This document shows positions 3,978 to 47,047 of a DNA stretch of 64,000 nucleotides, in pieces (positions within the stretch are counted from its first letter, which is position 1; the number at the start of each line of letters is the position of its first letter). Below the pieces are notes generated by a model, which was not told where the DNA came from, searched no databases, and worked only from the letters and a program-made list of their open reading frames with translations. The stretch covers positions 32,333-96,332 of the forward strand of contig SFJE01000002.1 in the NCBI GenBank assembly GCA_004555175.1, written 5' to 3'. Made by a program: the position numbers and the translations under genes. This DNA comes from Lentisphaeraceae bacterium. Lineage in GTDB: Bacteria; Verrucomicrobiota; Kiritimatiellia; RFP12; DVOR01.

Positions 3978-4172
3978 TGCAGAAGGAAAGGAACGGCGGC
4001 GCGGATTATCACGCGGCGCGGAGAGAACTAACCGCTCGGCGAAGCGCAACTAATAAGGCCCCGTCTTATTGGCAATAAGACCCCGTCTTATTCGCAACAA
4101 GACCCCGTCTTATTGGCAACAAGGCGGGGCCTTATTTATTCAAGTCGCTCGGGAAGCGAGTTAACCCAGCGC
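3978..4172 (+). repeat. interspersed ~195-bp repeat element copy A, with 4 nested AAGACCCCGTCTT-type palindromic units
   Basis: About 97% identical to 30701..30895 in the same orientation. Contains 3 CCCC-type units and 1 GGGG-type unit. Confidence 0.9.
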
Positions 4173-4202
4173 TTCAGATAAGGGTGCAGCGCAAAAAGGG
4201 CT

Positions 4203-4230
4203 TTGCTTTTGGGGTTTGGTTTGCTACAAT
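4203..4230 (+). promoter_or_regulatory. sigma70-like promoter of metK (TTGCTT-N16-TGcTACAAT)
   Basis: -35 TTGCTT at 4203-4208, a 16-nt spacer, and extended -10 TGcTACAAT at 4222-4230. This predicts a 5' UTR of about 165 nt. Confidence 0.5.
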
Positions 4231-4400
4231 GTGCGGCACGTTTGCGTTGATTTGGAAAGCGCTCCGGCTTGCGGACGCAGACGTCTTGGAACTGCACGCT
4301 AAAATGGAGGCACCGGGAGTTTCCCCATGGCGGCGGCAGGACGTGCGAGTGCACGGTCTGTCGTTTTCTTTTGGGGGCTTTGCGGTCCTGAAAGGACACT

Positions 4401-5585
4401 ATGAGCAAGTTGTTGACACGGCACATTTACACCTCGGAATCGGTTTCGGAGGGGCATCCTGACAAGGTGGCCGACGCCATCTCGGACGCGATTTTGGATG
4501 CGTGCCTGGCCTTGGATGATCGCGCGCATGTGGCGTGCGAGACGGCCTGCGGGAAGAATCTGGTGGTGAACCTGGGCGAGATTACTTGCCGGGGCTTTGA
4601 GACGCTGAACACGAAGGCGATTGCCCAGGAGATCATCCGGCGCGTGGGCTATGACAATCCGGCCGAGGGTTTCTGCTGGCAAGACTTTACCTATATCAAT
4701 AACCTGCACACGCAGTCGCCGGACATTAACCAGGGGGTGAGCCGGGCCGACCCGGAGGAGCAGGGCGCAGGCGACCAGGGGATGATGTATGGCTACGCCA
4801 CCAACGAGACACCCGAGTTTCTGCCCCTGCCGGTGGTCTGCTCGCACCGTATCCTTGCGCGCCTGGCCGAACTGCGCCACAGCGGGGCAATTGAGTGGCT
4901 GCGGCCGGACTCCAAGGCGCAGGTCTCGGTGCTCTACGAGGGCGGAAAACCCCAGGAGATTACCTCGGTGGTCTGCTCGCACCAGACGCGGGAAGTGAGC
5001 GAAGAGACCATCCACGCAGGGTTGGAAGCGGTCATCCGCGAGGTGCTCGCACCCACGGGGCTGCTGACGAACCGGACGGCCTTCCACCTAAACCCCACCG
5101 GGCGCTTTGTGATTGGCGGTCCGGCCGGAGACGCAGGAGTGACCGGGCGCAAGATTATCGTGGATACCTACGGCGGCGTGGGCTCGCACGGCGGTGGAGC
5201 CTTTTCGGGGAAGGATCCCTCGAAGGTCGATCGCTCGGCGGCCTACTACGCGCGCTACGCGGCCAAGCAGATTGTCGCGGCGGGGTTGGCCGAGAAGTGC
5301 GAGATTCAGGTGGCCTACGCCATTGGGCTGGCCAAGCCGATGAGCATCAATGTTTCCACCTACGGCACCGGGAAGGTGAGCGAGGAGGCGCTGGCGCAGT
5401 TGCTCCTTTCGGGCGAACTCTTCGACTTCCGCCCCGCCGCACTCATTCGCGACCTAGATCTCACCCACCCCAAGGGCTGGTCCTACTCCGAAAACTGCAC
5501 CTACGGTCACTTCGGCCGCACCATGGTGCCCTGGGAACGCCTCGACCGCGTGGAGGCGCTGCGCGAGGCGTTTGCTACCCGCTAG
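4401..5585 (+). CDS. metK: S-adenosylmethionine synthetase
   Basis: Hallmark SESVSEGHPDK N-terminus and a GGGAFSGKD P-loop; full length at 394 aa. Confidence 0.95.
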   Translation: MSKLLTRHIYTSESVSEGHPDKVADAISDAILDACLALDDRAHVACETACGKNLVVNLGEITCRGFETLNTKAIAQEIIRRVGYDNPAEGFCWQDFTYINNLHTQSPDINQGVSRADPEEQGAGDQGMMYGYATNETPEFLPLPVVCSHRILARLAELRHSGAIEWLRPDSKAQVSVLYEGGKPQEITSVVCSHQTREVSEETIHAGLEAVIREVLAPTGLLTNRTAFHLNPTGRFVIGGPAGDAGVTGRKIIVDTYGGVGSHGGGAFSGKDPSKVDRSAAYYARYAAKQIVAAGLAEKCEIQVAYAIGLAKPMSINVSTYGTGKVSEEALAQLLLSGELFDFRPAALIRDLDLTHPKGWSYSENCTYGHFGRTMVPWERLDRVEALREAFATR

Positions 5586-5606
5586 TGCGGGCAGATAAGA
5601 GATGAA

Positions 5607-5660
5607 AGATGACAGCGGCCTGTCCGTTGAAGGACACGCCCTGTCATCTATTTCTATCAT
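5607..5660 (+). terminator. probable intrinsic terminator after metK
   Basis: Imperfect long hairpin (agatgacagcggcctgtcc ... ggacacgccctgtcatct) followed by a T-rich tract. Confidence 0.5.
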
Positions 5661-5740
5661 CTCCCCTCTATTTTTCTGCAAAGGTCTAACTTTTCTGCTA
5701 TAATGCGGGGCGTTGTATCACCGTTTTGATGGAGAGAGAC

Positions 5741-6001
5741 ATGAGCGCAACAGTGACCGTTGAAATCTGTATGGGCACCACCTGTTATGTGATGGGCAGT
5801 GCTCAATTAGCCGGTATTGCCGAACGCCTGCCGGAAGAGTGGAAGAGCTGCGTGACCGTGAAGGGAATGCGTTGCACTGGCGCTTGCCAGAAGGCTGAGC
5901 AGTTCGGGCGCGCCCCCTTTGTGCGGGTGAATGGCGAGATTATCGCCGAGGCGGACGAGGGGAAGATCCTCTCGGCCATTCGTGCGGCTCTTGAGCAGTA
6001 A
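5741..6001 (+). CDS. thioredoxin-like [2Fe-2S] ferredoxin (NuoE/HndA-like small subunit)
   Basis: Cys pattern CMGTTC ... CTGAC. GGAGAG RBS 5 nt upstream of the ATG at 5741. A TGcTATAAT promoter box lies at 5696-5704. Confidence 0.7.
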   Translation: MSATVTVEICMGTTCYVMGSAQLAGIAERLPEEWKSCVTVKGMRCTGACQKAEQFGRAPFVRVNGEIIAEADEGKILSAIRAALEQ

Positions 6002-6029
6002 TTGAACGCGGACAAAGAGAGGAAGTGTT

Positions 6030-7472
6030 ATGGCTATCCCGATGATTAGCGAAGCCGACCGCCTGCGGCGCGAGGTGCTGGCCTATGTGATTAAGGCTGT
6101 CAAGGCCGGAACCTATGGCGACATTGACCGGATCCCGATTAAGATGCGCCCGAAGGGGCAGCCCTTCTCGCGTTGCTGCATCTATAAGGACCGCGCAGCC
6201 CTGCGTTATCGTTGCATGTCCGCCCTCGGCTTCCGCGTGGAAGATGAAACCGATGAGCTTAAGACGCTCCAATCCTACGCCGAGGACCTAAAGGATAATC
6301 CGCCGGCCGCCGACCCCTTCCTGACCATCTTCCCGGACGCCTGCTCGGCGTGTATGGAATCGCAGATTATGGTCACGAATATGTGCCGCGGCTGCTTGGC
6401 CCGCCCCTGCACCAATATCTGCCCGCGCAAGGCCATTCAAGTGCGCAACGGCCGCGCGCGCATCTCCCACGAGCTGTGCATCAACTGCGGCAAGTGCGCC
6501 GAGGTCTGCCGCTACCACGCCATCATCCAGGTCCCGCTCGCCTGCGCCGATGCCTGCCCCGTGGGCGCCATTGGTAAGACCGATGACGGCCGCGTAACCG
6601 TCGACCACGAAAAGTGCATCCGCTGCGGCAAGTGCATCAAGGCCTGCCCCTTCGCGGCCATTATGCAGAGTAACCAGGTGGCCCATGTGGTCCGCGCCAT
6701 CGCCGAGGGCAAGAAGGTCATCGCCCTGGTCGCCCCCGCCATCAATGGCTTCTTCCCAACCGAGCCCGGCAAGCTCTACACCGCCCTGCGCCAAGTCGGT
6801 TTCTCGGCGGTCTACGAAGTGGCCCGCGGCGGCGATGACACCGCCATTGCCGAGGCGGCCGAGTGGGCCGAACGCAAGGCCGAGGGCGCGCCCTTTATGA
6901 CCACCAGCTGCTGCCCGGCGTGGATTGAGTGCGTGGAGCGTCATATCCCCGAGCTCAAGCCCTACGTCTCCTCCACCCCCACGCCGATGGCCTACACCGA
7001 TAAGCGCGCGAAGGCTGACCATCCGGACGCGGTGACCGTCTTCATCGGCCCGTGCATGGCCAAGCGTACCGAAGCCCACAAGCACGGCTCGCCCGACTAT
7101 GTCATCACCGCCGAGGAGATTGGCGCCTGGTTGATGGCCGAGAACATTCAGCTTGACGACCTGGAAGCCAGCGAGCCCGAGCTCTCCGGCACCCAGTATG
7201 GCGCCGAGTTCGCCATCAGCGGCGGCGTGGCCAACGCTGTGGCCCACTATCTGCCCGAAGGCGTCCCCACCCCGACGGTCTTCAAGATCAACGGCCTCAA
7301 CAAGAAGAACATCGCCCTCCTGCGCGTCTTCGCCAAGACCAAGAAGGCCCCGGCGGAGATTATCGAAGTGATGGTCTGCCCAGGTGGCTGCGTGGCCGGC
7401 CCCTGCGCCATCAACACCCCCGAAGACGCAGCCAAGCTCATCCAGTCTCGCCGCCCTGAAGGCTTCAAGTAA
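6030..7472 (+). CDS. hydA: [FeFe]-hydrogenase catalytic subunit (two F-cluster ferredoxin domains plus H-cluster domain)
   Basis: H-cluster motifs TSCCPAW, GPCMAKRTE (PCxxKxxE) and EVMVCPGGCVAGPC (ExMxCxxGCxxG). Two CxxCxxCxxxCP ferredoxin motifs. An uncharacterized N-terminal extension of about 100 aa. At 480 aa it resembles a large subunit that lacks the C-terminal tail. Confidence 0.8.
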   Translation: MAIPMISEADRLRREVLAYVIKAVKAGTYGDIDRIPIKMRPKGQPFSRCCIYKDRAALRYRCMSALGFRVEDETDELKTLQSYAEDLKDNPPAADPFLTIFPDACSACMESQIMVTNMCRGCLARPCTNICPRKAIQVRNGRARISHELCINCGKCAEVCRYHAIIQVPLACADACPVGAIGKTDDGRVTVDHEKCIRCGKCIKACPFAAIMQSNQVAHVVRAIAEGKKVIALVAPAINGFFPTEPGKLYTALRQVGFSAVYEVARGGDDTAIAEAAEWAERKAEGAPFMTTSCCPAWIECVERHIPELKPYVSSTPTPMAYTDKRAKADHPDAVTVFIGPCMAKRTEAHKHGSPDYVITAEEIGAWLMAENIQLDDLEASEPELSGTQYGAEFAISGGVANAVAHYLPEGVPTPTVFKINGLNKKNIALLRVFAKTKKAPAEIIEVMVCPGGCVAGPCAINTPEDAAKLIQSRRPEGFK

Positions 7473-7473
7473 G

Positions 7474-8820: not shown

Positions 8821-8832
8821 GGGATTCCGCCA

Positions 8833-9279: not shown

Positions 9280-9285
9280 CCATCT

Positions 9286-10691: not shown

Positions 10692-11374
10692 CCCCTGCCA
10701 CCCGCGCCCTCGTCCTCCCCTTTGCCCTCTGGATCGGTGGCATCGTTCTCCTCCTCTTCCCGCATAGCTACGACGCGCCGGCCTACCTCTACGCCGCCAA
10801 GACCCTCCTCTGCGCCCTCGCTCTCCTCGTGCTCAAGCCCTGGCGCTATGCCCCCTGCGCCAAACAGCGCGGTGACCTCGCCCTCGGCCTCCTCGTTGGC
10901 CTAGCCGTCTACGCCCTCTGGGCCCTCCCCGAAAGCACCCCGTGGCCTGCCGTGACCGCCTGGTACCGCCGCTGGCTCGTAATGCTCCCCGGCGCACTCC
11001 CCGATTATAGCGCCTCCTGGTGCTACGCCTACCCAAGTCACCCCCTTCTCGCCCTGGTCAAACTGGTCGGCTCGGCCTTCGTCATCGCCCCCATCGAAGA
11101 GTTCTTCTTCCGCGGCTGGTTGATGCGCTCGCTCACCCAGCGCGACTGGCAGGAGCTGCCCCTGGGCAAGGTCTCCACCGCCGCCTTCTGGGCCACCGTG
11201 GCGGTCTTCGCCTTCGAGCACGACCGCTTCCTCGGTGGCGCCCTTGCCGGTCTGACCTACGGCGCCCTCGCCCGCAACACCAATTCCCTGCGTGCCCCCA
11301 TCATCGCCCACGTCACCACCAACCTCCTCCTCGGTCTCCAAGTCCTCCTCGCCGGCCACTACCACTTCTGGTAA
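10688..11374 (+). CDS. CPBP family (CAAX/Abi) intramembrane metalloprotease
   Basis: EEFFFRGWL (EExxxR), FAFEHDRF (FxxxH) and HVTTN motifs; multiple TM helices. ATGA overlap with the upstream gene. Confidence 0.8.
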   Translation: MTPATRALVLPFALWIGGIVLLLFPHSYDAPAYLYAAKTLLCALALLVLKPWRYAPCAKQRGDLALGLLVGLAVYALWALPESTPWPAVTAWYRRWLVMLPGALPDYSASWCYAYPSHPLLALVKLVGSAFVIAPIEEFFFRGWLMRSLTQRDWQELPLGKVSTAAFWATVAVFAFEHDRFLGGALAGLTYGALARNTNSLRAPIIAHVTTNLLLGLQVLLAGHYHFW

Positions 11375-11448
11375 TCCGCGCTCCCTGCCCGCGACGAAGC
11401 AATCTCCCCGTTATGCATTTAGGGGCAAGTGAGTGCGGGAGCGGGTTA

Positions 11449-11462
11449 GGATGTGGTATACT
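11449..11462 (+). promoter_or_regulatory. extended -10 promoter GGATGTGGTATACT, 7 nt upstream of the ATG (leaderless-type)
   Basis: Sequence ATGTGGTATACTGCGC is identical to 18451-18466 upstream of smc. The ATG is at 11470. Confidence 0.5.
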
Positions 11463-11469
11463 GCGCGAT

Positions 11470-14400
11470 ATGTCGAAAGCTAAGCGAGCGAACTTCTTGG
11501 AGAAGGTCGACCGGCTTGCCTTATGGGTGAGCGGGTTGACGGCCTTTGCGGTCTATCTCCTCTCGCTAGGGCCTTCAATTGGCATGGAGGATGCGGGGGA
11601 GTTGGCAACGGCAGCTGACGTGCTGGGGGTTCCGCATCCGCCAGGGTATCCGCTCTGGACGATGCTCTCGTGGCTCTTTTGCCGGGCCTTTGGGTGGGTG
11701 ACATGGCAGGGGTGGCCGAATCCGGGTTGGGCAGTGGCATTGGCGTCGGCGGTGGCGGGAGCGGCAGCAGTGGGGGTGCTGGCGGCAGTGATTTCGCGCT
11801 CGCTGAAGGCGCCGTTGGGGGCGTTAGAAGGGGGAGAGACGGTACGCGGAATTACGGGAATCGGGGCGGCATTGGCCTTTGCCTTCTCACCGGGGATGTG
11901 GTCGCAGTCAGTGATTGTGGAGGTGTATGCACTGGGAGCACTCTTTTTTTCGCTAGTGATGCTCTTGGCGCTAGATTGGCTCGTGCAGCGGCGTGGTTGG
12001 ACCTTGGTGTGGTTGGGGTTAGTCTTTGGGTTGGGGCTGACGAACTATCAGGTGTTGCTCTTGGCGGCGGTGCCATTGGGAGCGATGGTAGCGATTCGGC
12101 GGTGGCGTCTAGCGCGAAGTTTTCTCGCGGTGGCGATTCCGTTGGGGCTGACGATTTACCTGTTGCAACTGGGCGCGATGGAGAGCGCGGATGCACTTTC
12201 GACGCCAGGAGCACCAGTGATTTTGCGGCCGGAGGCGGCCGTTGAGGTGCGTTATCCCGGGGCACTGGCGCCGGAGGCGGCCGTTGAGGTGCGTTATCCC
12301 GGGGCACTGGCGCCGGTGTGGCTCTATGGCGCGTTGGCGGGGTTGGTGCTGGGGATGGCCGGCGTGGCGTGGGCGCGGCCGCGAGGGCGGTGGTGGGCGT
12401 TAGGTACCTTGGCCGGAGCACTTGGCGCGCTCTTGGCCTTCTCGGCGTGGCGCTTTGCAACGCGGGAGGTGCCCGAGGGTTTTGCGGGAACGCTCTACGG
12501 CTTTGGTCGGGCATGGGTTGTGCACGCAGTGGCATTGGGGGGGCTCTGGGCGCTCTGTTGGCGGTGGCGGCGGGCGCGACGCTTTGCCTTTGTGGTGAGT
12601 GTAGGGCAGATGGGGGCGTTGGGGTTGATGGCGCAGGGGCTGATGATGGGGCTAACGCACCCCACAACGGGGTGGTTCTGGTGGCCAATTGTGTGGAATG
12701 GAGTGGTGTTGGCGCTGGCGTGGCGGCTCTTGCCGGGCGGAAAGTGGGTGGCCGGGACGATTGGGGCAGCCGAGGCCGGGCTCGCGGTCTATGGCTATAT
12801 GCCGCTGGCTTCCGACGCGCTAAATCCGGGGATGAATTGGGGGTATGCGCGGACGTGGGAGGGCTTTAAGCACGCGGTCTCGCGCGGACAGTATGAAGCA
12901 ATTTCGCCGGCAAGCATCTGCTCGGTGGCCTATCTCCGGCAGCTGTGGGTCTATCTGGGGGACCTGCGGATGCAGTTTATGGGGCTAGGGATGACGTTGG
13001 GGGCGGCCGGGCTGGTGAGCGCGCTGGGCGTGGCGCGGCGGCGGGTGCAGGGTTATCGGGGAATGCGGCTGTGGCCGTGGGTGACGGTGGGGCTCTTTGT
13101 GATGATGTCGGCGGTGTTGGTGGCATTGGCGAATCCGACGGGGGACATCCAAGATGGCTTTATTCAGAAGGTGAAGTTCATTACCTCGCACCAGCTCTTC
13201 GCGGTGTGGATTGGCTACGGTCTGGCTTTGGCGGCGGTGGGGCTAGCCAAGTGGCGCGGGACCCGCGCGGCGGCGATTGGAGCAGGCGTGCTGGCTGCAG
13301 CCGTCGCGTTGGGGCCGATGGTGGAGAACTTCCGCGACCGCGAGTTGGTTCGGCGCGTTGGGGCCGCCGAGCAGACGGGGCACGACTTTGGGTGGCAGTT
13401 TGGGGCCTACATGATGGGCGGGGCCGAGCAGATCTTGGCCGAGGTGCGCGCAGATGAAGAGCCGCTCCCGGATCCCTTCTGGCCGCCGCCGATGAGTCCG
13501 GGGGCAGTCTACTTTGGCGGGACAGATGCCGGGCGCTTTGTGCCCACCTACCTGGCCTATGCCGTTGGCTTCCGGCCCGATGTCTGTGTGCTCACGCAGA
13601 ATGCCTTGGCCGACCCCACCTATATGAATGTGGAGCGAGACCTCTATGGCGAGCAGCTCTGGCTCCCGACCGCCGATGAGGTCCGGACGGCCTTTACCGA
13701 TTACACCAATGCGGTCCTGGCTGGAAAGCGCACGTCGCGCGGGAAGATTACCGAGGTCAATGGGCGCGTACAGATTAGCGGCTCGGCGGCCGTGATGGAA
13801 ATTTGCGAGGAGCTGGCCCGGCAGATTTGGGAACGGAACCCTGAGCGGGACTTTTATCTAGAGGAGAGCTACCGGATGCCGTGGATGGATGCGGTGCTCG
13901 AGCCCGCGGGGCTGGCGATGCGCCTGCGGCGCGAGGTGGAGGGGCGCGACCTAGCGGCCGACCGCGCGCGGAATGATGACTTTTGGGATTGGATGGTGCG
14001 CCGGCTCATCACGCGCGCGGCTTATGGGCGGGACTTTGCCGCGCAGAAGAGCTTCTCAAAGTTGCGCTCCTCGCAGGCAGGGATTTATGCGCGCAACGGC
14101 CAGGCTGAGGCGGCCGAACGGGCCTTTGGCGAGGCGATGGCACTCTTCCCCATTTCGCCCGATGCCCTCTTCCGTTACCTGCAAGAGTCGCTCCTGCCCC
14201 AGGGGCGCTTTGAGGTGGCTGGGCGAATGTTGCGGCAGTATCTGCGCGTGGATCGCGGCAATACGCGAGCCTATGCGGCCCTAACGCGCGTGGAGGAACT
14301 AGGGAAGGCCGATGCCACCTTTCGCGCCCTGACCCAAAAGGTGCGCGATCAGCAGGCCACGACCGCCGACATCTGCAATTTGGCCCGCACGGCCGAGGCG

Positions 14401-14859
14401 CTTGACCGCCACGAGATTGCCGCCGCCTACTGGGAGCAGGTGGTCTCGGCCGCCGATTTAACCGCTGGGGACGCGCGCGACGGGTGCATTGCCCTGCAGC
14501 GCCTGCGCAAGAACGAGTCGGCAATGGCCCTTCTGCGACGCGTGCCAGAGGCCGTTTGGCCGACCCTTTCGGGGGCGGAGCTGGTGGCCTCATCTGGCTT
14601 GGCCCAGACCTTTGGAGAGCGACAGTTGGCGCTCGCCCTCCTGCAATGTGCCGTAAAGGCCGAGCCACAATCTGGCCGCGTGTGGCTGGGGATTGCCCTT
14701 TTCTATTATGGCGTCGGGGACGAAGCCCGGGCCTACGAGTACATGCGCACGGCAGTGCGCTTTGGAGCCTCCTCGCTCATTGAGGCAGATGAGGCCGTAG
14801 CAGAGGTCTTCTTGCACCTAGTGCGTCGCTACGGTCCACAGAAAGGAGTCGCGCAATGA
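11470..14859 (+). CDS. DUF2723/TMEM260-like GT-C family membrane glycosyltransferase (putative protein O-mannosyltransferase-like) with C-terminal TPR repeats
   Basis: N-terminal block GELATAADVLGVPHPPGYPLW matches the TMEM260/DUF2723 signature (GVAHPPGYPLF). Many TM helices and a C-terminal TPR-like region. Start chosen at MSKAKRAN; the ORF is open back to 11020. Confidence 0.7.
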   Translation: MSKAKRANFLEKVDRLALWVSGLTAFAVYLLSLGPSIGMEDAGELATAADVLGVPHPPGYPLWTMLSWLFCRAFGWVTWQGWPNPGWAVALASAVAGAAAVGVLAAVISRSLKAPLGALEGGETVRGITGIGAALAFAFSPGMWSQSVIVEVYALGALFFSLVMLLALDWLVQRRGWTLVWLGLVFGLGLTNYQVLLLAAVPLGAMVAIRRWRLARSFLAVAIPLGLTIYLLQLGAMESADALSTPGAPVILRPEAAVEVRYPGALAPEAAVEVRYPGALAPVWLYGALAGLVLGMAGVAWARPRGRWWALGTLAGALGALLAFSAWRFATREVPEGFAGTLYGFGRAWVVHAVALGGLWALCWRWRRARRFAFVVSVGQMGALGLMAQGLMMGLTHPTTGWFWWPIVWNGVVLALAWRLLPGGKWVAGTIGAAEAGLAVYGYMPLASDALNPGMNWGYARTWEGFKHAVSRGQYEAISPASICSVAYLRQLWVYLGDLRMQFMGLGMTLGAAGLVSALGVARRRVQGYRGMRLWPWVTVGLFVMMSAVLVALANPTGDIQDGFIQKVKFITSHQLFAVWIGYGLALAAVGLAKWRGTRAAAIGAGVLAAAVALGPMVENFRDRELVRRVGAAEQTGHDFGWQFGAYMMGGAEQILAEVRADEEPLPDPFWPPPMSPGAVYFGGTDAGRFVPTYLAYAVGFRPDVCVLTQNALADPTYMNVERDLYGEQLWLPTADEVRTAFTDYTNAVLAGKRTSRGKITEVNGRVQISGSAAVMEICEELARQIWERNPERDFYLEESYRMPWMDAVLEPAGLAMRLRREVEGRDLAADRARNDDFWDWMVRRLITRAAYGRDFAAQKSFSKLRSSQAGIYARNGQAEAAERAFGEAMALFPISPDALFRYLQESLLPQGRFEVAGRMLRQYLRVDRGNTRAYAALTRVEELGKADATFRALTQKVRDQQATTADICNLARTAEALDRHEIAAAYWEQVVSAADLTAGDARDGCIALQRLRKNESAMALLRRVPEAVWPTLSGAELVASSGLAQTFGERQLALALLQCAVKAEPQSGRVWLGIALFYYGVGDEARAYEYMRTAVRFGASSLIEADEAVAEVFLHLVRRYGPQKGVAQ
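12229..12312 (+). repeat. exact 42-bp x2 in-frame tandem duplication (PEAAVEVRYPGALA x2) inside the DUF2723 gene
   Basis: Positions 12229-12270 are identical to 12271-12312. Confidence 0.95.
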
Positions 14860-15869: not shown

Positions 15870-15885
15870 AGAATCCAATAACGCT

Positions 15886-29495: not shown

Positions 29496-30557
29496 TTAGT
29501 GCTTCGGGATACGGAGCGTAGTGCCAGGAGCCACCGCATTATTCGTGGTATCCTCAAGGTTATTTGCCGCACGCAGGTCGGTCAAGAGCACATTGAACCT
29601 CAACGAGATGCTCACCAGGTCCTCCTTCTCGCCCACCACGTAGGTGGTGAACTCATCGGCCGGCGCCGCCGGCTGCTGCTGGGGCACCGGAGGCTGGGGC
29701 GCAGCCTCCTCCACGGGCGCCACCGGGGGCGGCGGCAACGCTTCCTCGCCCTGCTGGGCGTCCACCGGCGTAACAATCACCGTCTGCTCTTCAGCGGCCG
29801 GGACCGGCTGCTCGACCACAGGCTTCTGCTCAACAGGCTTCTGCTCCACCGGCTTCGCAGCAGGCTTCTGGGTAGCAGGCTTCGCGGCGGACTTCTGAGC
29901 GGGCTTCTTCGTCGCACCCGGGATAGCGAGCTTCTGGCCCACCCAAATCGTGTCGCCCTTCAAGTTGTTGGCCTTCTTGATGGCCTCCACCTTCACCCCA
30001 TGCTTACGCGCAATCGTGCCAAGCACATCACCGGACTTGACCGTATAGGTCGTCGACCCGGCCGGCGCCGCCGGCTTCGCCGCACGCGGCTTGGCCTTGA
30101 CCGTCACATCCGTTCCTGCCGGCAAGAGCACCTTCTGCCCGATGCGCAGGTTGTTCGGATTCCCGCGCAACGAGGGGTTGAGGGCCAGAATATCAGGCTG
30201 ACGGACTTTGAAGCGAGTGGCGAGCGCGCTCACCGAATCCCCCGCCGTCACCGTGTAACTCACCGGCTGAGGATGAACCGCCTCGGGCTTCTTCGCCTCA
30301 GGCTTGGCTTCGGGCTGCGTAGCGGGCGCGGGCTTGACCTCGGGCTCAGCCGTCTCAGGTGCCACTTCGGCCTCATTCGGAGTAACCGTCGGCTCGGCGC
30401 TCACCTCGGCTTCGACCTGCTCAGCCTCTTGGCGATTGACCTCAATGGCTTCCTGCTGCGCCTGGCTAGCCGCAGCCTCCTGCTTCGTGGCGCAACCAGT
30501 CAGCACCACAGCGGAACACGCCGTTAGACAAAGGGAAAACAACACTTGCTTCTTCAT
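29496..30557 (-). CDS. lipoprotein with LysM peptidoglycan-binding domains and Pro/Lys/Glu-rich linkers
   Basis: Lipobox LTGC, and three LysM-like repeats (YTVTAGDSVSALA, YTVKSGDVLGTIA, YVVGEKEDLVSIS). Confidence 0.8.
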   Translation of the reverse strand: MKKQVLFSLCLTACSAVVLTGCATKQEAAASQAQQEAIEVNRQEAEQVEAEVSAEPTVTPNEAEVAPETAEPEVKPAPATQPEAKPEAKKPEAVHPQPVSYTVTAGDSVSALATRFKVRQPDILALNPSLRGNPNNLRIGQKVLLPAGTDVTVKAKPRAAKPAAPAGSTTYTVKSGDVLGTIARKHGVKVEAIKKANNLKGDTIWVGQKLAIPGATKKPAQKSAAKPATQKPAAKPVEQKPVEQKPVVEQPVPAAEEQTVIVTPVDAQQGEEALPPPPVAPVEEAAPQPPVPQQQPAAPADEFTTYVVGEKEDLVSISLRFNVLLTDLRAANNLEDTTNNAVAPGTTLRIPKH

Positions 30558-30700
30558 TGATAAACTCCTGATCTCGAGGCTTAATCACCCTCAAAACGGC
30601 TCGAACTATACCAAACCATCACCTAAAAGGCAAGCATTTGTACCACCTGCACCCTCATTCTGCGCTCCCCGGGAACTCCGGAAATTCCGGAATAAGGGTG

Positions 30701-30895
30701 TGCAGAAGGAAAGGAACGGCGGCGCGGATTATCACGCGGCGCGAAGAGAACTAACCGCTCGGCGGAGCGCAACTAATAAGGCCCCGTCTTATTGGTAACA
30801 AGGCCCCGTCTTATTGGCAACAAGACCCCGTCTTATTGGCAACAAGGCGGGGCCTTATTTATTCAAGTCGCTCGGGAAGCGAGTTAACCCAGCGC
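30701..30895 (+). repeat. interspersed ~195-bp repeat element copy B
   Basis: About 97% identical to 3978..4172 in the same orientation. Confidence 0.9.
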
Positions 30896-31219
30896 GGAGG
30901 TGTGATGTAATGGCGGTGCTTGAACGGTTGAAACTGTCTAACGTGAAAGGAGTATGACAATGAGCAAACAGACTGATACGGACGCTGTATAAATATCAAT
31001 AGAATTGCGCACGAGGGCGGCATCGCCCCTTGCGCTTCGCCCCCGCTACGCACATCACGCTGCACGCATTTACACGCCAACCCAACGCCTCACAACAGAA
31101 AACTTTCCACCGCTATCACATTCCCGATAACCGCATCTGCTAACCCACTCCCCTCCGTCGCCTCTCCTTTCCTACCCCCCTCGCGACAAGGGGCAGCCCC
31201 TGCATAGCCTATAAAAGAG

Positions 31220-31485: not shown

Positions 31486-31841
31486 TGGTGGAGGTGGCGG
31501 GAATTGAACCCGCGTCCAAAGCAGCTTCACAGCGATGTCTACGTGCGTAGCCGGATCTTTGTGTCGCGCAAGGCAAGCCAACCGGCGGGCCAGACCTTGA
31601 GCCACCCTTCATGATGGTACGGTTACGTGTTCCCGAGGGGCCGGTTCACGCAGAGACCTGCGGGTTGACGCGTCCGCCCTTAGCAGGTGTCAGGGGTTCA
31701 GCGACGGGCCAAAAAGGTTAGGCCGCGTAGGCGAAGTTATCGTTCGCAGTTAGGTTTTTGATCGATGTTTTACGGGGCCAACGATCATCCCCGGCACGCA
31801 ACCGAAGTTCCGACATGCCCTGTCGAGACCTGGTCACCCCC
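31486..31841 (-). ncRNA. ssrA: tmRNA (ssrA); encoded tag peptide ANDNFAYAA
   Basis: 5' end GGGGGUGACCAGG and 3' end GGACGCGGGUUCAAUUCCCGCCACCUCCACCA (T-arm plus CCA). Resume codon and tag ORF GCGAACGATAACTTCGCCTACGCGGCCTAA. Confidence 0.9.
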
Positions 31842-33800: not shown

Positions 33801-33805
33801 GCGCC

Positions 33806-37441: not shown

Positions 37442-37467
37442 GCGCCGTATCCTCCCCCCACCCCACG

Positions 37468-37508
37468 AAGTTGGGTCTAGTTCACCACGAACTAGGCCCA
37501 ACTTTTTT
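37468..37508 (+). terminator. intrinsic terminator of the metzincin gene
   Basis: 16-bp stem aagttgggtctagttc / gaactaggcccaactt followed by TTTTTT. Confidence 0.7.
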
Positions 37509-37531
37509 GAGCGATGATTGGTGACCTGGCA

Positions 37532-37575
37532 CTAAAAGAAAACCATCAGGGGGCCTTGAGGAGGCCACCCTGATG
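37532..37575 (-). terminator. intrinsic terminator of the queD operon
   Basis: Hairpin catcagggggcc ... ggccaccctgatg with a T-run on the minus strand (AAAAGAAAA on plus). Confidence 0.6.
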
Positions 37576-37610
37576 ATTCTGGAGGAGGGGATCGGTCCCG
37601 AGATTGCGCG

Positions 37611-38033: not shown

Positions 38034-38041
38034 GGCGGACC

Positions 38042-39322
38042 TCACGGGCGGGGGCGTTTAACGGCGGCAAAGAAGGGTTTTGAGCGGGCGCTCGCGGCGG
38101 CGGGCTTGGCTGGGCGCGGCGGACGGGGCTGGGGGGCACGCTTGGGGCGGACGGCCTCGGCGCCCATCGCGTTGCGAGCATGTTCGGAGTGGAAGGGCTG
38201 CTCGACATCTTGGGGGATGGGGCGGCCGATGAAGTGCTCGATGTCGCGCAGGGCTTGGCGGTCGTGCGGGCAGACGAGGCTGATGGCTTCGCCTTCGGCG
38301 CCGGCGCGAGCGGTGCGGCCAATGCGGTGAACGTAGGTTTCGGGCTCGTCGGGCAGGTCGTAGTTGATGACGTGGGTGACCTCGTCGACATCAATTCCGC
38401 GGGCGGCAATGTCGGTGGCCACGAGGACTTGGACCTTGCCCGAGCGGAAGCCTTCGAGGGCGCGCAGGCGGGCGGCCTGGCTCTTGTCGCCATGGAGGGC
38501 GGCGGCGGGGAAGCCATCGCGCGTGAGCTGCTTGCAGAGGCGGTCGGCCCCATGCTTCATGCGCGGAAAGACAATGACGCGGAAGCACTTGGGCGTATCG
38601 AGGACCCACTTGAGGAGGGAATACTTCTTCTCCTTATCCACAAAGAGGACGCGCTGGCGGATTGTGTCAACGGTCGGCGCCTCGGGGTTGATGCGAATGG
38701 AGACGGCGTGGCCCTGGATGAACTGCTTGGCCAAGGCCGTGACCTCCGGCGAGAGGGTGGCCGAGAAGAAGAGCGATTGGCGCTTGTGCGGCAATTTGGC
38801 CAGGACCTTGCGGATGTCGGGCAGAAAGCCCATATCAAGCATCCGGTCGGCCTCATCGAGCACCACCGCTTGGACGCTCTCGAGCGAGAGTGCGCCCTGC
38901 CCCTCCAGGTCCAAGAGCCGCCCGGGGGTGGCCACGAGCACGGCCACCCCCTTGGCCAAGGCCGCCACCTGCGGCTTGATGTTCACGCCGCCAAAGACCA
39001 CCGCACAGGGCAGGTCCAGCCCTTTGGCGTAGGCAGAGCAATTCGCCTCAATCTGCGCGGCCAGTTCGCGCGTGGGAGCCAAGATGAGCACCAACGGTCG
39101 TTTGGGGCGGAGCGTGGCGTGCGCCTGGGCGAGCCGGTGCAGGAGCGGTAAGGCGAAGGCGGCCGTCTTGCCAGTGCCGGTCTGGGCGCAGCCCATGAGG
39201 TGCTTGCCGGCGAGGATGGGCTTGATGGCCGCTTCCTGGATGGGCGTGGGGCGTTGATACCCCATCGCCGCGATGGCCTGTTGCAAGGCCGGGTGGAGAT
39301 GCGCGAAGACCGTCCCCTTCAT
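38042..39322 (-). CDS. DEAD-box ATP-dependent RNA helicase (RhlE-like) with basic C-terminal tail
   Basis: Q motif, AQTGTGKT, DEAD, SAT, HRIGRTAR. Confidence 0.9.
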   Translation of the reverse strand: MKGTVFAHLHPALQQAIAAMGYQRPTPIQEAAIKPILAGKHLMGCAQTGTGKTAAFALPLLHRLAQAHATLRPKRPLVLILAPTRELAAQIEANCSAYAKGLDLPCAVVFGGVNIKPQVAALAKGVAVLVATPGRLLDLEGQGALSLESVQAVVLDEADRMLDMGFLPDIRKVLAKLPHKRQSLFFSATLSPEVTALAKQFIQGHAVSIRINPEAPTVDTIRQRVLFVDKEKKYSLLKWVLDTPKCFRVIVFPRMKHGADRLCKQLTRDGFPAAALHGDKSQAARLRALEGFRSGKVQVLVATDIAARGIDVDEVTHVINYDLPDEPETYVHRIGRTARAGAEGEAISLVCPHDRQALRDIEHFIGRPIPQDVEQPFHSEHARNAMGAEAVRPKRAPQPRPPRPAKPAAASARSKPFFAAVKRPRP

Positions 39323-41055
39323 TGGCGCGCCTCCCGCCGCTTGCCGGGATGGCCCTTGCCGCGGCCCTTAAAGTTGCCCTTGAAGGGGCCCTTACGGCCC
39401 TTGGGGCCTTTGGGGCGGGGCGACTCGGGGGTAGCCTCCACGAACTTGGGGTTGAGCGGCCGGCCATCAAAGTCGGCCTCGCACAAGGCTTCTAGGACGC
39501 GCTCGCCGAGTTCGGCGCGCACATCGAAGAAGGCGAACTCACGCTTGATGGCAATGGCTCCGATGTCCGAGGCTTGAATACCGGCCAGTTCGCAGGCCAA
39601 GCGGACAACGGCGCCCTCGCGCAGGTGGTCTAGTCGCCCCACGTGGAGCATCAGGCGCTTGCGCTCACCGAAGGCCGCGTCGCGTTCGGCGCGGGAGGGA
39701 GCGGCCACGGGGTTGAGGTCTCGCGCGTCTTCATAGGCCTCCATCAACGAACTCAGGCGCAGCTGGAGGATACGCGCCAGGACCTCGGTGGCGGAGAGTT
39801 GGCCCATCAGCGGGGCCACGGCCGGCAAGAGCTCCTGGATGGCCGGGTTAATCTCCTGGACCTGGCGGACCTGTTCGGCCAGCCAGAAGACGTGCTTTTG
39901 GCGGACATCGTCGGCAGTCGGGATGGCGCGCTGCTCGAAGCGCAGACCGCAGATGCGCTCGATGAGGCGGAGCTTCTGGCGGTCGCGCGGGGTGACCAAG
40001 GTGATCGAGATGCCCGCCTTGCCGGCGCGGGCGGTGCGGCCGGAGCGATGGGTGTAGACGGCCGCGTCATCGGGCAGATGGTAGTGAATGACATGGGTGA
40101 TGTCCTCGACATCCAGGCCGCGCGCGGCGACATCGGTGGCCACGAGGATGCGGACAGCCTTGTCGCGGAACTTGCGCATCACCGCGTCGCGTTGGGCCTG
40201 GGAGAGGTCGCCGTGGAGGGCTTCGGCGTAGACGCCATCGTGCATCAACGCCTCGCTCAGCTTCTGGGTGTCGGCCCGCGTGCGGCAGAAGACCAAGCCA
40301 TACATTTCGGGAACGAAGTCGATAATCCGCCGCAGGGCACCGTAGCGATTCTTCTCGGCCACGGCGTAGGCGTGGTGCTCAATATTGGCCTGGGCCACAT
40401 TGCGCGTGCCGACGGTAATCTCTAGGGGCTGGTGGATGTAGCGCCCGGCGATGGCCTCGACTTCTGGCGGCATCGTGGCCGAGAAGAGCCACTTCGCGGC
40501 AGAAGCCGGCACGCGCTCGAGAATGAAGTCAAGCTCCTCGCGAAAACCCAGGTCGAGCATCTCGTCGGCTTCGTCAAGGACGCAGGTACGCACCGTGTCT
40601 AGGGCGATAGCCTCGCGCCGGAGGAGGTCGCAGAGTCGCCCGGGGGTGGCCACCACCACCTGCGCCCCGCGTTCAAGCTTGGCAATCTGCTGGCCGATTG
40701 GCGCGCCGCCGTAGCAAGCCACCACGCGCACCTGCGCCAGGTGCTTGGCAAAGCGGGCCAACTCCTCGCCAATCTGCAAGCAGAGTTCACGCGTTGGGGC
40801 CAGAATCAGCCCCTGCACGGAGGTCGCTTCGCCTTGAACCCGGGCCAAGAGCGGCAGACCGTAGGCGCAGGTCTTGCCAGTGCCCGTGGCAGCCAGGGCC
40901 ACGCAGTCGGGCGCCTCGGCAGCCAACAGGGGCGGAATAGCGGCAGCCTGAATCGGCATCGGGGCCTTAAAGCCCAGCCCCTCAACGGCCCGCAGCAACG
41001 GCTCGGGCAATCCCAAACTCCGGAACTCTCCGGTCTCTTCGCACATCGTCATCAA
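39319..41055 (-). CDS. DEAD-box RNA helicase with DbpA/CsdA-like C-terminal RNA-binding domain
   Basis: ATGTGKT, DEAD, SAT, HRSGRTAR, plus a C-terminal DbpA-like region and an RGG/K-rich tail. Confidence 0.9.
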   Translation of the reverse strand: MMTMCEETGEFRSLGLPEPLLRAVEGLGFKAPMPIQAAAIPPLLAAEAPDCVALAATGTGKTCAYGLPLLARVQGEATSVQGLILAPTRELCLQIGEELARFAKHLAQVRVVACYGGAPIGQQIAKLERGAQVVVATPGRLCDLLRREAIALDTVRTCVLDEADEMLDLGFREELDFILERVPASAAKWLFSATMPPEVEAIAGRYIHQPLEITVGTRNVAQANIEHHAYAVAEKNRYGALRRIIDFVPEMYGLVFCRTRADTQKLSEALMHDGVYAEALHGDLSQAQRDAVMRKFRDKAVRILVATDVAARGLDVEDITHVIHYHLPDDAAVYTHRSGRTARAGKAGISITLVTPRDRQKLRLIERICGLRFEQRAIPTADDVRQKHVFWLAEQVRQVQEINPAIQELLPAVAPLMGQLSATEVLARILQLRLSSLMEAYEDARDLNPVAAPSRAERDAAFGERKRLMLHVGRLDHLREGAVVRLACELAGIQASDIGAIAIKREFAFFDVRAELGERVLEALCEADFDGRPLNPKFVEATPESPRPKGPKGRKGPFKGNFKGRGKGHPGKRREARQ

Positions 41056-41064
41056 TCGTCATCC

Positions 41065-42839: not shown

Positions 42840-44524
42840 TACGGCACCGGGAAGTGCGCCACGAGCGCGCGCACCTCTTCACGCACGCGCTGCTGGAGCG
42901 CGGTGTCTTCGGGCGACTTGAGGATCTCGACGATCCAACCGCCGAGCTTGACCATCTCGGGCTCCTTCATTCCGCGCGTGGTCACCGCAGCGGTACCGAT
43001 GCGGATACCGGAGGTGACGAAGGGGCTCTCGGTGTCGTAGGGGATGGTGTTCTTGTTGCAGATGATGCCCGCAGCATCCAACGCCGCGGCCGCCAGCTTA
43101 CCCGTCAGCCCCGAGGCCTTCACGTCCACCAGGAAGAGGTGGTTATCCGTGCCCCCGGAGACGAGCCGGAAGCCAGCCTCCTGCAACACCTTTGCCAGCG
43201 CCTGCGTATTGGCGACAATCTGCGCGGCATAGGCGTGCGCATCGCGGTGGAGCCACTCGTTAAAGCAAACCGCCTTGGCCGCGATAACATTCTCCAGCGG
43301 ACCGCCCTGGATGCCCGGGAAGACCGTCTTATTGATGGCCCCGATGTACTTCTCCTTGCAGAGAATGAGGCCCGAGCGCGGGCCGCGCAAGGTCTTGTGT
43401 GTAGTGGTGGTCACGAAGTCGGCATAAGGCACCGGCGAGGGGTGAACGCCGCCAGCAATCAGACCGGCAATGTGGGCCATATCCACCATCAAGTAGGCGC
43501 CCACCTTGTCGGCAATCGCCCGGAAGCGGGCAAAGTCAATCACGCGCGGATAGGCCGAAGCGCCCGCCAAGATGAGCTGGGGCTTGACCTCCATCGCCTG
43601 CGCCTCAATCGCGTCATAATCGAGCTGCTCGGTCTCCTTGTTCACCACGTAGGGGACAATGTTGTAGAGCTTGCCCGAGAAGTTCACCGGCGAGCCGTGG
43701 CTCAAGTGGCCGCCCTGATCCAGGCTCATCGAGAGAATCGTGTCACCCGGCTTGAGCATCGCAAAAAAGACCGCCATATTCGCCGCGCTGCCGCAGTGCG
43801 GCTGGACATTCGCCGCCTCGGCCCCGAAGAGCTTCTTGGCGCGCTCGATGGCCAACTGCTCGACCGCGTCCACCGGCAAACATCCGCTATACCAGCGCTT
43901 GCCCGGATAGCCCTCGGCGTACTTGTTATTCAGCACCGAGCCCTGCGCCTCGCGCACGGCCGCGGAGGTGTAGTTCTCCGAGGCTATCAGGTTGACCGTC
44001 TCATCCTCCTGCTTCACCTGCGCGACAATCGCCGCATGCACCTCAGGGTCGGCCCACGCCAAGAGCGAAGACTCGGCCAGACGGCCCGCGCGGTCGCACT
44101 TCACCAGGCGTCGGGCGTGACGCTCAGCCCCCGAGAACGGCGTATCCAGCCACACGCCCAGGGCGCGCTCGGCCGCAGCCTCGCTCAACGCGCGGGCCGA
44201 AAGGATTAGGACATTGGCATCATTATGCTCGCGCGAGAGCTTCGCCACCGCTTCATCGGTGACAATCGCCGCGCGAATACCGGTGAAACGGTTGGCCGTG
44301 ATGCTCATCCCAATCCCCGTCGAGCACAATAGCACCCCGCGATCGGCCTTCTTCTCCAAAACCGCCTCGCAGACCGCCACCGCAAAGTCCGGATAGTCAT
44401 CAGCGGCTTCGGCGTTGAATGAACCCACATCCACCACCGTCTCGCCGCGCGCTTCCAGCACCGCAGCCAACTTCGCCTTCAGGGCTACGCCCGCATGATC
44501 GCAACCAATCGCAATCGTACTCAT
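42839..44524 (-). CDS. rpiB-glyA: fusion protein: ribose-5-phosphate isomerase B (N-terminal ~145 aa) fused to serine hydroxymethyltransferase
   Basis: RpiB signature IAIGCDHAG ... [11 protein letters not shown] followed in the same frame by SHMT blocks [36 protein letters not shown]. Start at MSTIAIG with AGAGGAG upstream. Confidence 0.8.
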
Positions 44525-44609
44525 CTCTCTCGTATGCTCCTCTTTCGGAATGTCGAATAAAGAAAACGGCGAAAGTATACCACAATCCCACCCCGTACGC
44601 GCACAATGC

Positions 44610-46748
44610 CTACGGCAGAAAGACGAGTTTGCCACCCTTACTATTCTTGAAAAGAGCCTCTGGCGGGAACCAATCTGGCCGTAGCCCCGTGCGATAATCG
44701 TTGGTGCGATAGAGCGCAAAGTTCAAGTGAAGTTGTGGGGCGGAGGGATCTGCAGCATCGGGCCGATAGCCGTCAATCAGTGTGGTGGTCAAACCATAGA
44801 GTGCGCGCGAATCATAGGTGGGCGTGCGGACGCACAGCACGGGCTTGCCAGCCTCAAGTGAGGCCTTGATCCGCGGGAGCAAGAGCGGCAGGGTGACTTC
44901 ATCCAGCGTAACGATGGGCCCAAGGAGGGCTCTCGTCTGCTCTGGCGTGAGCCCCACTGCGCGCGCCTCCGTGGCGAAACTGGGCGGAATCTGCGAGGGG
45001 CCCGGCTTGAGTTGCAGGGCGCGGGTGCAACTCGCATCAAAGTCCTCGGGGAAGGCCCCGGCATAGAGTCCGGCCTCCTCGGCAAGAGAGATGGCCCAAT
45101 GGTAGGCGGCCGCAAGGTCTTGGATTGTGGGGCTATAGCGCGCATAGGGGCAACCGGGGAGGATGTTGTTGGGCTGCAGATGGAGGCGTTGACAGTTGAA
45201 ATCGGGCTTCTTGCTAGTCTTCCCAACAGGATGATGCCAGAGGGCCATCAACTTCACCAAGGCACACGCGCCGCTCTTGTTATAGAGGTAGCCTTCGGAA
45301 TCGTAGTGCAAATCGCGCGGTGGGACGGTGTAGCCATCTAGCAACAACGCTGGCACTTCGTCCACCTCTTTCGGCAGCGTAACCTGATGGCACTCAGGAG
45401 AGTACGCCACGCCATAGGCATTCTTGGCATAGGCGCGCACATACAGCGTAGAGCCGGGCTTGAGACCGGTGATGCGCGTGGTGTCACGCCAATCCGAAAA
45501 GCCCCAAAGCGGCCAAAGCCCCTGCTTGATGGTGGGGTTGGGGGTGGACGCGTAGCAAAAGCCGTAGTCGGTGTAGGGCTCTTCTCCGCGGAAGTGCACG
45601 GTGAGGGTGGCGCGCAGGCTGGTGGGCAAGAGCTCGCGGGGCTCTTCCAGGTGAACCACTGGCAACATCGAGCGCTTGAGCGCTTGCCCGGAGAGGCGGC
45701 TTGCGGGGACGGTCACCGTCACCTCTGCGCCCGTTTCATCCTGGGGTCCAAAGGTGATCTCAACGCCCGTGGGCAGGCAGTTAGGGAGGCGATTAGGCGG
45801 GTCACTCTCGACCGAGAAGTCATCTCCCTCACGAAAGATCGCCAAGGGACTCTCTGGCTTGATGCGCTCATAGCGGAAACGCCCGGGCGCGACCTGCACC
45901 CGTTGATACCCTTCCTTGGCGTTGGGGTCCGGGGCCGAGCGCCCGCGGAAGTAGGGATCGCGCTTGCGATAGGAATAGACCAAGTCGGGCGTGCCGTGAT
46001 AGGGATCAGACTGTGGCACGTTAATATAGTAGATAAGGATGCCGCCGCGCGGAGAGTACGAATCTGTAACCTTCCCGATGGTGTTCTCTGTGGGGCCGTT
46101 GTCAAAGGTCTGCACCTCATCGGGTTCATACTCCAAGTGCAGGAGGTAGTTAGGGTGCTCGGTGGGGATAAAGATGCCCAGGGGTGTCTTGCCATCAAAC
46201 TCGCCCCAGCGCGGGGCCAACTTCACTGTGGTGCTTTGGTGCAGCGTGGGATAGGCTGCCGCCGGCAACAGACCGCAATAGCGGTAGCGGCAGTAGAGCG
46301 GCGCGGTAGGCCCGCCGCCGGCGATGACGGGATGACCGGGAATGCCGTTATCCTTCTGCGGAGCGTGATAGGTGTCAGGAGCACCCAGCACATGCCCCAA
46401 CTCGTGAATCATCGTGCTGGCACCCCCCTCGGCTTTGACGATAATGCGCGAGTTCGGCCACAAAGGCTCCCCCCAGGCAATGTAGAAGTTGGGGTTGTAA
46501 TCCTTGAGCGGATCTATGTCGCGATCCTCGCGGAAGCCGACGGCCCGCCGTTCATCTTCACTCTGGGAGTAGTGACTGACGGGGTAAAGCTTGCGCAACT
46601 CCGGCAACTGCTCCAGCGAGCGCGGATGGGTTGAATCCTTGCTGGTGACCGGCAGAATCTTCGTGGCGTAGGCCAGCACGCGCACATCCACCTTATCAGC
46701 CCGTTTGGAGGAGCTCCTCAACGCCGCAACACCCCCACCACTCCACAT
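44610..46748 (-). CDS. putative HExxH zinc metallopeptidase (M6/InhA-like motif [13 protein letters not shown]) with FN3-like region; N-terminus uncertain
   Basis: No signal peptide or RBS at any in-frame start; the ORF opens with TTG at 46775. Possibly truncated. Confidence 0.45.
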
Positions 46749-46974
46749 GCTAGCCGCGTGCGCGTGTGCACGCAAGTCGACAGTGAACAGTCGACAGGAC
46801 GCGGCAAGCCGCGACGGACGGGCTCTCGTTAGAAGTATTGAGCTTCATCGTTTCAGACTTTCGCTTGTTCGTCGCGTTAGCGCACGGCGACTCGACTGTC
46901 GACTATTCACTCTCCTCTGTCGGCCGGGCGCAACCTCCCCCATGCCGGGCGAAAACCTCCTCCCGGGGCGGGAG

Positions 46975-47047
46975 GAATTATTAAGACCCCGTCTTAATTC
47001 AAACAAGACGGGGTCTTATTTGCAATAAGACGGGGTCTTATTAGTTT
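46975..47047. repeat. partial copy C of the palindromic-unit repeat (3 AAGACSSSGTCTT units, mixed orientation)
   Basis: ttattaagaccccgtcttaatt ... aagacggggtcttatt ... aataagacggggtcttatt. Confidence 0.8.

Follow-up and report, generated by a model that had tools for sequence, protein, structure and literature searches.

The window analyzed in this work, i.e., the whole 64,000-nt stretch of contig SFJE01000002.1 (positions 32,333 to 96,332) of the Lentisphaeraceae bacterium assembly GCA_004555175.1, contains three arrays of short palindromic repeats, referred to here as copies A, B, and C. All of them are intergenic, being localized between genes confirmed by Pfam or a tmRNA gene: copy A between a gene for an RNase_T-type exonuclease and metK, copy B between a LysM gene and the tmRNA gene ssrA, and copy C between a 721-aa open reading frame (ORF) and dnaB (Table 1). 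Both the location and the neighbors agree with a first-pass annotation of this DNA, which was made from its letters alone. The MetK and DnaB proteins of the window are 96–98% identical to proteins of Candidatus Spyradenecus metagenome-assembled genomes (MAGs; Lentisphaerota), and a search for an exact match to the window MetK retrieved no entry. As described below, the arrays are a genuine repeat family of the ordinary repetitive extragenic palindrome (REP)/bacterial interspersed mosaic element (BIME) kind, newly described for Lentisphaerota.

Table 1. Repeat copies and flanking genes in the window (> and <, units in direct and inverted orientation).
Feature	Position	Strand	Details
Copy A, 195-nt mosaic	3978-4172	+	5′ segment 3978-4051; four-unit array 4052-4136 (>>><); 3′ segment 4137-4172
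Array core of copy A	4052-4136	+	period 22 bp
Small hairpin in 3′ segment of copy A	4146-4160		cgctcgggaagcgag
Copy B, 195-nt mosaic	30701-30895	+	array 30775-30859 (>>><)
Copy C, three-unit array	46976-47046	+	><<; units at 46983, 47005, 47027; unit span 46983-47039
Second-family array, 13+9 = 22-bp geometry	58141-58197 (context 58120-58225)	+	GGTAGGGCCTACC, CCTAGGCCCTAGG, GGTAGGCCCTAGG
RNase_T-type exonuclease gene (site A)	2855-3685	-	
metK (site A)	4401-5585	+	
LysM gene (site B)	29496-30557	-	
tmRNA gene ssrA (site B)	31486-31841	-	
721-aa ORF (site C)	44610-46775	-	
dnaB (site C)	47229-48740	+	

The arrays are built of a 22-bp module composed of a 13-nt palindrome, AAGRC-CCC-GYCTT, and a 9-nt spacer, ATTGSCAAY (ATTGGCAAT/C and variants). 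The spacer, itself nearly palindromic, lengthens the stem to 8 bp (AATAAGRC/GYCTTATT), and the orientation of a unit is set solely by its loop (CCC or GGG) and the R/Y positions. Within an array, the modules follow each other head-to-tail and keep strictly to the 22-bp register, with 2–5 of them per site and, frequently, one inverted unit at the end; thus, copy A comprises the direct units AAGGCCCCGTCTT (4055), AAGACCCCGTCTT (4077), and again AAGACCCCGTCTT (4099), and the inverted unit AAGGCGGGGCCTT (4121). Tandem Repeats Finder placed period-22 arrays at 4055-4123, 30778-30848, and 46991-47042. With up to one mismatch allowed, the motif AAGRCCCCGYCTT has 14 sites in the window, while 0.54 were expected and the maximum in 100 shuffles was 3; 11 of the 14 are exact, all within arrays A, B, and C. 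Moreover, every 16-mer occurring at least three times in the window derives from these arrays.

An ungapped alignment of copies A and B revealed differences at 6 of the 195 positions (189 identical, 97%), as close a match as the first-pass annotation had stated, and the homology ends abruptly on both flanks. These copies are one mosaic, recently duplicated. The third copy, previously described as partial and rearranged, turned out to be an independent array of the same units, as it contains neither the 73-nt 5′ segment nor the 36-nt 3′ segment of the 195-nt block. The conserved 5′ segment and 3′ hairpin, which had been ascribed to each copy, are therefore restricted to A and B, with the 3′ part recurring in the orthologous copy of the sister strain L025. 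Consequently, the proposed ~195-bp repeat family had to be redefined: the dispersed entity is the 22-bp module array with variable flanks, embedded in mosaics, and the 195-nt block is known only from two sites of the window and one ortholog. The two small ORFs with a shared WVNSLPERLE C-terminus (4136-4426 and 30859-31080) do exist, and their common end stems from the repeat.

Copies A and B begin with TGCAGAAGG and end with CCCAGCGC (flanked by gaaaaa and ttcaga, and by agggtg and ggaggt, respectively). Target-site duplications, the search for which had been suggested earlier, and terminal inverted repeats were sought at A and B, and none was found. In the vicinity of site A, cggggcgggcgcaaatggga at 3868-3900 resembles the right-hand cap (cccggggcgggcgcgaatgggg) of arrays in the related loci L019 and L018, and because of this resemblance the site A mosaic may continue leftward for ~110 nt beyond 3978. 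The motif ATAAGGGTG(T)GCAG is present directly left of copy B (30692-30705) and directly right of copy A (4179-4190), where it may be a fragment of an element start.

For the identification of further copies, one genome per species was scanned with a two-unit pattern, for which ~0.002 chance matches were expected (this is our own estimate, not a tool output, based on 49 bits of pattern information versus 1.2e12 positions at uniform base composition). The scan indicated 18 loci in three related gut MAGs and one contig of Omnitrophota. The three MAGs, labeled Spyradenecus sp., ‘Lentisphaeraceae’, and ‘Kiritimatiellae’, are close relatives, judging by their shared flanks and an orthologue identity of 84–93%, and their 18 loci hold 19 arrays of 2–5 units with an invariable spacing of 22 bp and (>)n or (>)n< patterns; altogether, at least 20 such arrays are present in related MAGs. 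Related genomes, in which the first-pass annotation had proposed to count copies, thus do contain the family. None of the 22 arrays lies within a long ORF of high G+C content at third codon positions (GC3); the heuristic gene calls were too noisy to sort the intergenic contexts into convergent, divergent, or tandem ones. Contig ends hold five of the six arrays of MAG CAMGJH01, and the sister-strain contigs with metK (L025) and dnaB (L035, L036) start inside an array, i.e., the arrays behave in assembly as high-copy repeats do.

Among viral contigs the two-unit pattern gave 0 matches, a BLAST search of the 195-mer against plasmid and phage sequences gave none, and a metagenome scan, for which a 22-mer from the 5′ segment served as the query, resulted in one chance match inside an unrelated coding sequence. 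The arrays have the 22-bp direct periodicity in common with plasmid iterons (22-bp direct repeats), from which they differ by their palindromic units, their many chromosomal intergenic sites, and the lack of a rep gene nearby and of a plasmid match.

The hairpin folding of the copies proposed earlier was well supported. A single unit, AATAAGACCCCGTCTTATT, folds into an 8-bp stem with a 3-nt CCC loop (z = -16.8), and the DNA-fold z-scores of the array alone were -10.8 (copy A) and -7.6 (copy C), those of the whole copy A being -4.6 (RNA) and -6.1 (DNA). An array with an inverted end unit forms one long hairpin, in which the outer units pair perfectly and the inner ones via 3x3 loops; in copy A, unit 1 pairs with unit 4, and unit 2 with unit 3. 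This applies to the >>><, ><<, and >< patterns, and many arrays of the relatives are all-direct (>>>>, >>>>>). The strongly negative folding z-scores obtained for both strands might point to structured small-RNA genes or cis-regulatory RNA leaders. We consider this very improbable, as the equal folding of both strands results from the palindromic sequence, the copies differ in their orientation versus the flanking genes, the number of units varies, and the 3′ hairpin is mutated in the L025 ortholog; furthermore, Rfam gave only generic long-hairpin matches below the gathering score (E up to 5), and only the tmRNA passes it in the window.

A comparison of 79 units showed that the core is nearly invariant, with one variable pair, which is G.T in 50, A-T in 26, and G-C in 3 units. 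The G.T pair, present in the commonest unit, is a wobble on the CCC strand only and hints at a single-strand, strand-specific recognition. In the same units, the flanks AAY...ATT belong to the stem, no unpaired GTAG or CGTC tag was found at the palindrome end, and CGTC was found solely inside the hairpin. All 55 TAAG-N7-CTTA sites in 217 kb of the lineage retain the inner stem with at most one mismatch, and minor subfamilies carry complementary double changes, with AC/GT replaced by AG/CT, TG/CA, or TC/GA (AAGAG..CTCTT, AAGTG..CACTT, AAGTC..GACTT). A CRISPR array was ruled out, since the 9-nt spacers are conserved (ATTGSCAAY), unlike the unique spacers of CRISPR.

The 13+9 geometry is not confined to one sequence. 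A second family, located in the window between a beta-galactosidase gene and an NAD synthase gene (Table 1), has units (GGTAGGSCCTASS) that carry GTAG, but within their stem; a homopolymer run, T9G8, is found just downstream of this array (58243-58259). Second-family units were also identified upstream of dnaB in the sister strains L035 and L036 and, together with the left end GATACCCTAAAAAA, which the window array has as well, fused to AAGRCCCCGTCTT arrays in the MAG contigs L016 and L019. The latter two resemble two copies of one 230-nt composite, yet they share at least 70 nt of the left flank, and since they may be alternative assemblies of one locus, they were not scored as two separate copies. 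Different 13+9 unit families are combined with one another and with caps in L008, L010, L015, L016, and L019, and the 195-nt mosaic of the window is arranged likewise.

The arrays of the MAGs lie between G+C-rich caps in loosely inverted orientation (CTCGGGCGGGG..GAATTAAT and ATTAATTC..CCCCGCCCGAG), which, along with the size of ~70–230 nt, the intergenic dispersal, and the presence of two 97% identical copies, could suggest miniature inverted-repeat transposable elements (MITEs), i.e., deletion derivatives of a DDE-type insertion sequence mobilized in trans via terminal inverted repeats. Indeed, the arrays are small, non-coding, intergenic, dispersed, and hairpin-capable, as are the Correia/NEMIS, RUP, and ERIC elements. 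However, the 195-nt copies have neither terminal inverted repeats nor target-site duplications, the interior is modular and tandem, the length is variable owing to a unit number of 2 to 5, and the cap motif GCTCGGGCGGGG is not enriched in the window (26 found versus 33 expected). Beside the 19 arrays of the related loci no transposase gene recurs, and the recurrent neighbors are solely a PEP-CTERM paralogue and orthologous loci. The MITE explanation is thereby largely refuted and retains a very small probability, and of the first-pass description of the repeats as “REP/BIME-like or MITE-like” only the former half stands.

The next subject of comparison was the presence of the arrays at orthologous sites. 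Upstream of metK, the element is present in the window and in L025 (98% MetK identity) and missing from L020, L021, and L026 (96–97%), in which the homology restarts at window position 4190, 17 nt beyond the element, and a different gene lies upstream. Substitutions have destroyed the 3′ hairpin in L025 (cgctcgggaagcgag to cgctcgggaagaggg), and since it is not conserved in this ortholog it seems unlikely to be a functional part. In strains without element A, a long hairpin, AGAAAAGTGCACC...GGTGCACTCTTCT, was observed upstream of metK (L020 2660-2730, L026 1-70); its arms resemble the AAGTG-GTG-CACTT unit subfamily. At the dnaB site, a 97%-identical strain has a second-family array instead, and the homology restarts only at the -10 box (L035, L036). 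An array localized in a MAG beside the orthologue of window 52081-53994 is missing from the window, and the loci L012 and L014 keep an array at an orthologous site. As the sister genomes differ across the whole upstream region of metK and dnaB, precise insertion boundaries could not be read. Given that repeats can give rise to chimeric MAG contigs, the coincidence of the arrays with breaks in synteny is no more than suggestive.

The position of the arrays relative to promoters was considered as well. Copy B is located ~70 nt upstream of a promoter-like site of the LysM gene and follows the ssrA terminator at a distance of ~550 nt downstream (both features are on the minus strand). From the end of copy C it is ~150 nt downstream to the dnaB TGCTATAAT box. 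The GC-skew profile was uninformative with respect to array orientation versus replication direction. The location of the three window copies 50–190 nt upstream of promoter-like boxes, the exact two-turn phasing of 5-3-5 palindromes, and the existence of several unit families with the common 13+9 geometry would suit double-stranded operator arrays, in which a dimeric protein binds the 13-bp palindromes and the 22-bp spacing places it on one helix face, forming a regulatory or nucleoid-structuring complex upstream of promoters. Such a function appears improbable. A TGNTANAAT box was found within 400 nt of just 3 of the 22 arrays in related loci, at irregular distances, some arrays are located just downstream of genes (e.g., L011), and the commonest unit (the G.T class) is imperfect as a duplex palindrome. 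Moreover, near-identical strains differ at the metK and dnaB sites in whether the element is present and even in which family is found there, and this speaks against a gene-specific regulator.

The Omnitrophota contig mentioned above provided a possible link with a transposase. Its AAGAC-CSG-GTCTT arrays, which partly share the 22-bp period and the spacer ATTGCAAAC, end 20 nt before a gene encoding a 198-aa protein with a Y1_Tnp domain (E = 4e-16). The top NCBIfam model for this protein is the REP-associated tyrosine transposase (RAYT), with 55 bits (under the cutoff of 80 of this equivalog) versus 18 bits for IS200, and the gene bears the JGI label RayT; a cluster look-up of the RAYT homologues returned no names. 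The profile of the clade best matches TnpA-REP of E. coli (PDB 4ER8), the match spanning the HUH motif and the catalytic Tyr. The neighborhood of the gene (BNR protein, Y1_Tnp, thioredoxin, CbiA/DRTGG, PTA) is conserved in orthologues down to 54% identity, and every orthologue with available DNA (100–59% identity) has AAGACCGGGTCTT on its upstream side and AAGACCCGGTCTT on its downstream side, the two forming an inverted pair; the 13-nt REP core of this clade thus remained unchanged while the protein diverged to 59% identity. A single-copy Y1_Tnp gene flanked by inverted AAGACCSGGTCTT units was found in the Omnitrophota contigs L027, L029, and L030-L034. The downstream flank in L029 is expanded to ~3.5 tandem copies of a ~129-nt unit holding four such palindromes.

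RAYTs are defined by being single-copy, vertically inherited, and flanked by REPs (PMC5581495, PMC3116915). The arrangement in Omnitrophota, with the core flanking a single-copy syntenic Y1_Tnp gene as an inverted pair, as in REPIN-RAYT systems (REPIN, a hairpin-forming REP doublet) and for TnpA-REP of E. coli, is the classic REP-RAYT arrangement. The window unit and the Omnitrophota REP share the stem and an all-G/C 3-nt loop, and a common descent of the Spyradenecus and Omnitrophota REP families is likely.

It is in the light of this sharing that the Spyradenecus arrays may be seen as REPs recognized by a RAYT. With moderate confidence, we favor the explanation that they are REP/BIME-type repeats of Spyradenecus intergenic DNA, spread by a RAYT-type transposase encoded elsewhere in the genome. 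The recognition site of such a Y1 (HUH) transposase would be the hairpin formed by the unit AATAAGRCCCCGTCTTATT on single-stranded DNA, which the enzyme would cut and rejoin at replication forks, thereby seeding sites that have neither terminal inverted repeats nor a duplicated target. The arrays would afterwards expand or contract by 22 bp at a time, through slippage or through repeated addition beside an existing unit, and could serve as substrates for rearrangement, while host-level effects (e.g., a bidirectional hairpin terminator or an insulator between genes) would be secondary. Recognition of a single strand by a RAYT would account for the strand asymmetry of the G.T pair as well as for the lack of terminal inverted repeats and target-site duplications.

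Comparison with described systems supports the REP/BIME half of the first-pass proposal, through the extragenic hairpin palindromes, their multiple copies in relatives, their mosaics, and the near-identical core flanking the Omnitrophota RAYT genes. The REPs and BIMEs of Enterobacteria and Pseudomonas (GTAG/CGTC superfamilies, PMC3733652) are likewise short, extragenic, imperfect palindromes forming stem-loops; they also occur in clusters and in mosaics with other short motifs, in variable unit numbers and without target-site duplications or terminal inverted repeats, and have many copies per genome, as the arrays analyzed here are multi-copy in their lineage. In contrast, our units have a CCC loop on a very short stem that is rich in A+T. 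REPINs (Bertels and Rainey, PMC3116915; PMC5581495) resemble the arrays with an inverted end unit, which also fold into one long hairpin, but here 2–5 modules, rather than a fixed doublet, constitute the replicating unit. Head-to-tail (HT) arrangements, tandem clusters, REPs with a 5-bp stem, and REPs of the PVC superphylum (Planctomycetes, Opitutus) have already been reported (PMC3733652). The unit sequence and the Lentisphaerota lineage were not found in the searched literature, and in a search combining RAYT or REPIN with these phylum names neither term occurred in the top-ranked papers.

Several observations weigh against the involvement of a RAYT. Searches of the 64-kb window and of ~200 kb from related loci (tblastn and a hidden Markov model built from 120 homologues) detected no RAYT gene, and the key enzyme is thus unproven for the window lineage, which in this respect differs from the REPIN-RAYT systems. 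The Omnitrophota loop is CSG versus CCC here, and most of the similarity was imposed by the pattern with which the Omnitrophota unit was detected. TnpA-REP of E. coli reportedly requires GTAG. The tag typical of most described REPs, an unpaired GTAG or CGTC (PMC3733652), is absent from the units, CGTC being placed inside the hairpin, and the units are arranged mainly head-to-tail in a strict 22-bp register, whereas REPINs are inverted doublets and BIMEs alternate orientation with S/L spacers. Furthermore, the synteny breaks at the arrays could partly be MAG mis-assemblies, and the copy counts are confined to the 64-kb window (3 arrays, 11 units) and the three related MAGs (19 arrays). Taken together, the dependence of the Spyradenecus arrays on a RAYT is plausible by analogy with Omnitrophota, but not proven for this genome.

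The main alternative, which we hold to be rather unlikely, is that these are palindromic repeats without a dedicated transposase, spread by slippage, recombination, and gene conversion and kept as terminators, insulators, or stabilizers of mRNA ends. The missing RAYT gene would be expected in this case, and CGTC-type REPs without a dedicated transposase have been reported (PMC3733652). The strict 22-bp register and the variable unit number suit slippage, the last unit of copies A and B followed by ATTTATT obtained a weak terminator-like score, and the array retained at an orthologous site across species (L012, L014) is consistent with such a role. However, slippage and conversion leave unexplained the dispersal to many unrelated intergenic sites, as well as the near-identical core flanking RAYT genes in another PVC phylum. 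The orientation of the arrays relative to the neighboring genes is inconsistent, and copies A and C are located between divergent genes, where there is no transcript to terminate.

A more far-reaching version of the RAYT explanation, which we regard as distinctly unlikely, assumes an ancient RAYT-REP partnership of the PVC superphylum common to Omnitrophota and Lentisphaerota. In such a partnership, untagged REPs in a fixed 22-nt register and co-resident 13+9 families would build phased mosaic arrays that are read by the cell (e.g., as a two-turn-phased DNA-binding or insulating complex) and are preferred rearrangement breakpoints.

Several other features of the window were recorded. An extended -10 box, TGCTACAAT or TGCTATAAT, recurs upstream of metK (4222-4230), the 2Fe-2S/hydrogenase operon (~5696-5704), and dnaB (47196-47204), and probably represents the signature of housekeeping promoters in this organism. 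Conservation of the metK 5′ leader (4232-4400) extends to relatives as distant as 79% nucleotide identity (L022, L023), and Rfam returned nothing for it with E values of up to 5; the leader may be an unrecognized S-adenosyl methionine-responsive leader or riboswitch. A 92-nt tRNA-Leu(cag) indicated by ARAGORN at 39776-39867 (+) lies within a long high-GC3 ORF (39319-41055, -), its Rfam tRNA match is below the gathering score, and it is probably a false positive. Finally, within a 1279-aa ORF (11020-14859), a 42-bp segment at 12228-12316 is perfectly duplicated in tandem (2.1 copies, 100% matches), which would equal an in-frame duplication of 14 residues.

To conclude, repeats of the REP/BIME type are described here for the first time in gut bacteria of the Lentisphaerota, which extends a known phenomenon and introduces no new principle. 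The arrays interrupt metagenome assemblies, give rise to spurious ORFs, and are found where synteny between near-identical strains is broken, and knowing them aids both annotation and the quality control of MAGs. If it is true that the Lentisphaerota arrays need an enzyme related to that of Omnitrophota, REP-RAYT biology would extend past Proteobacteria to untagged, phased REPs.

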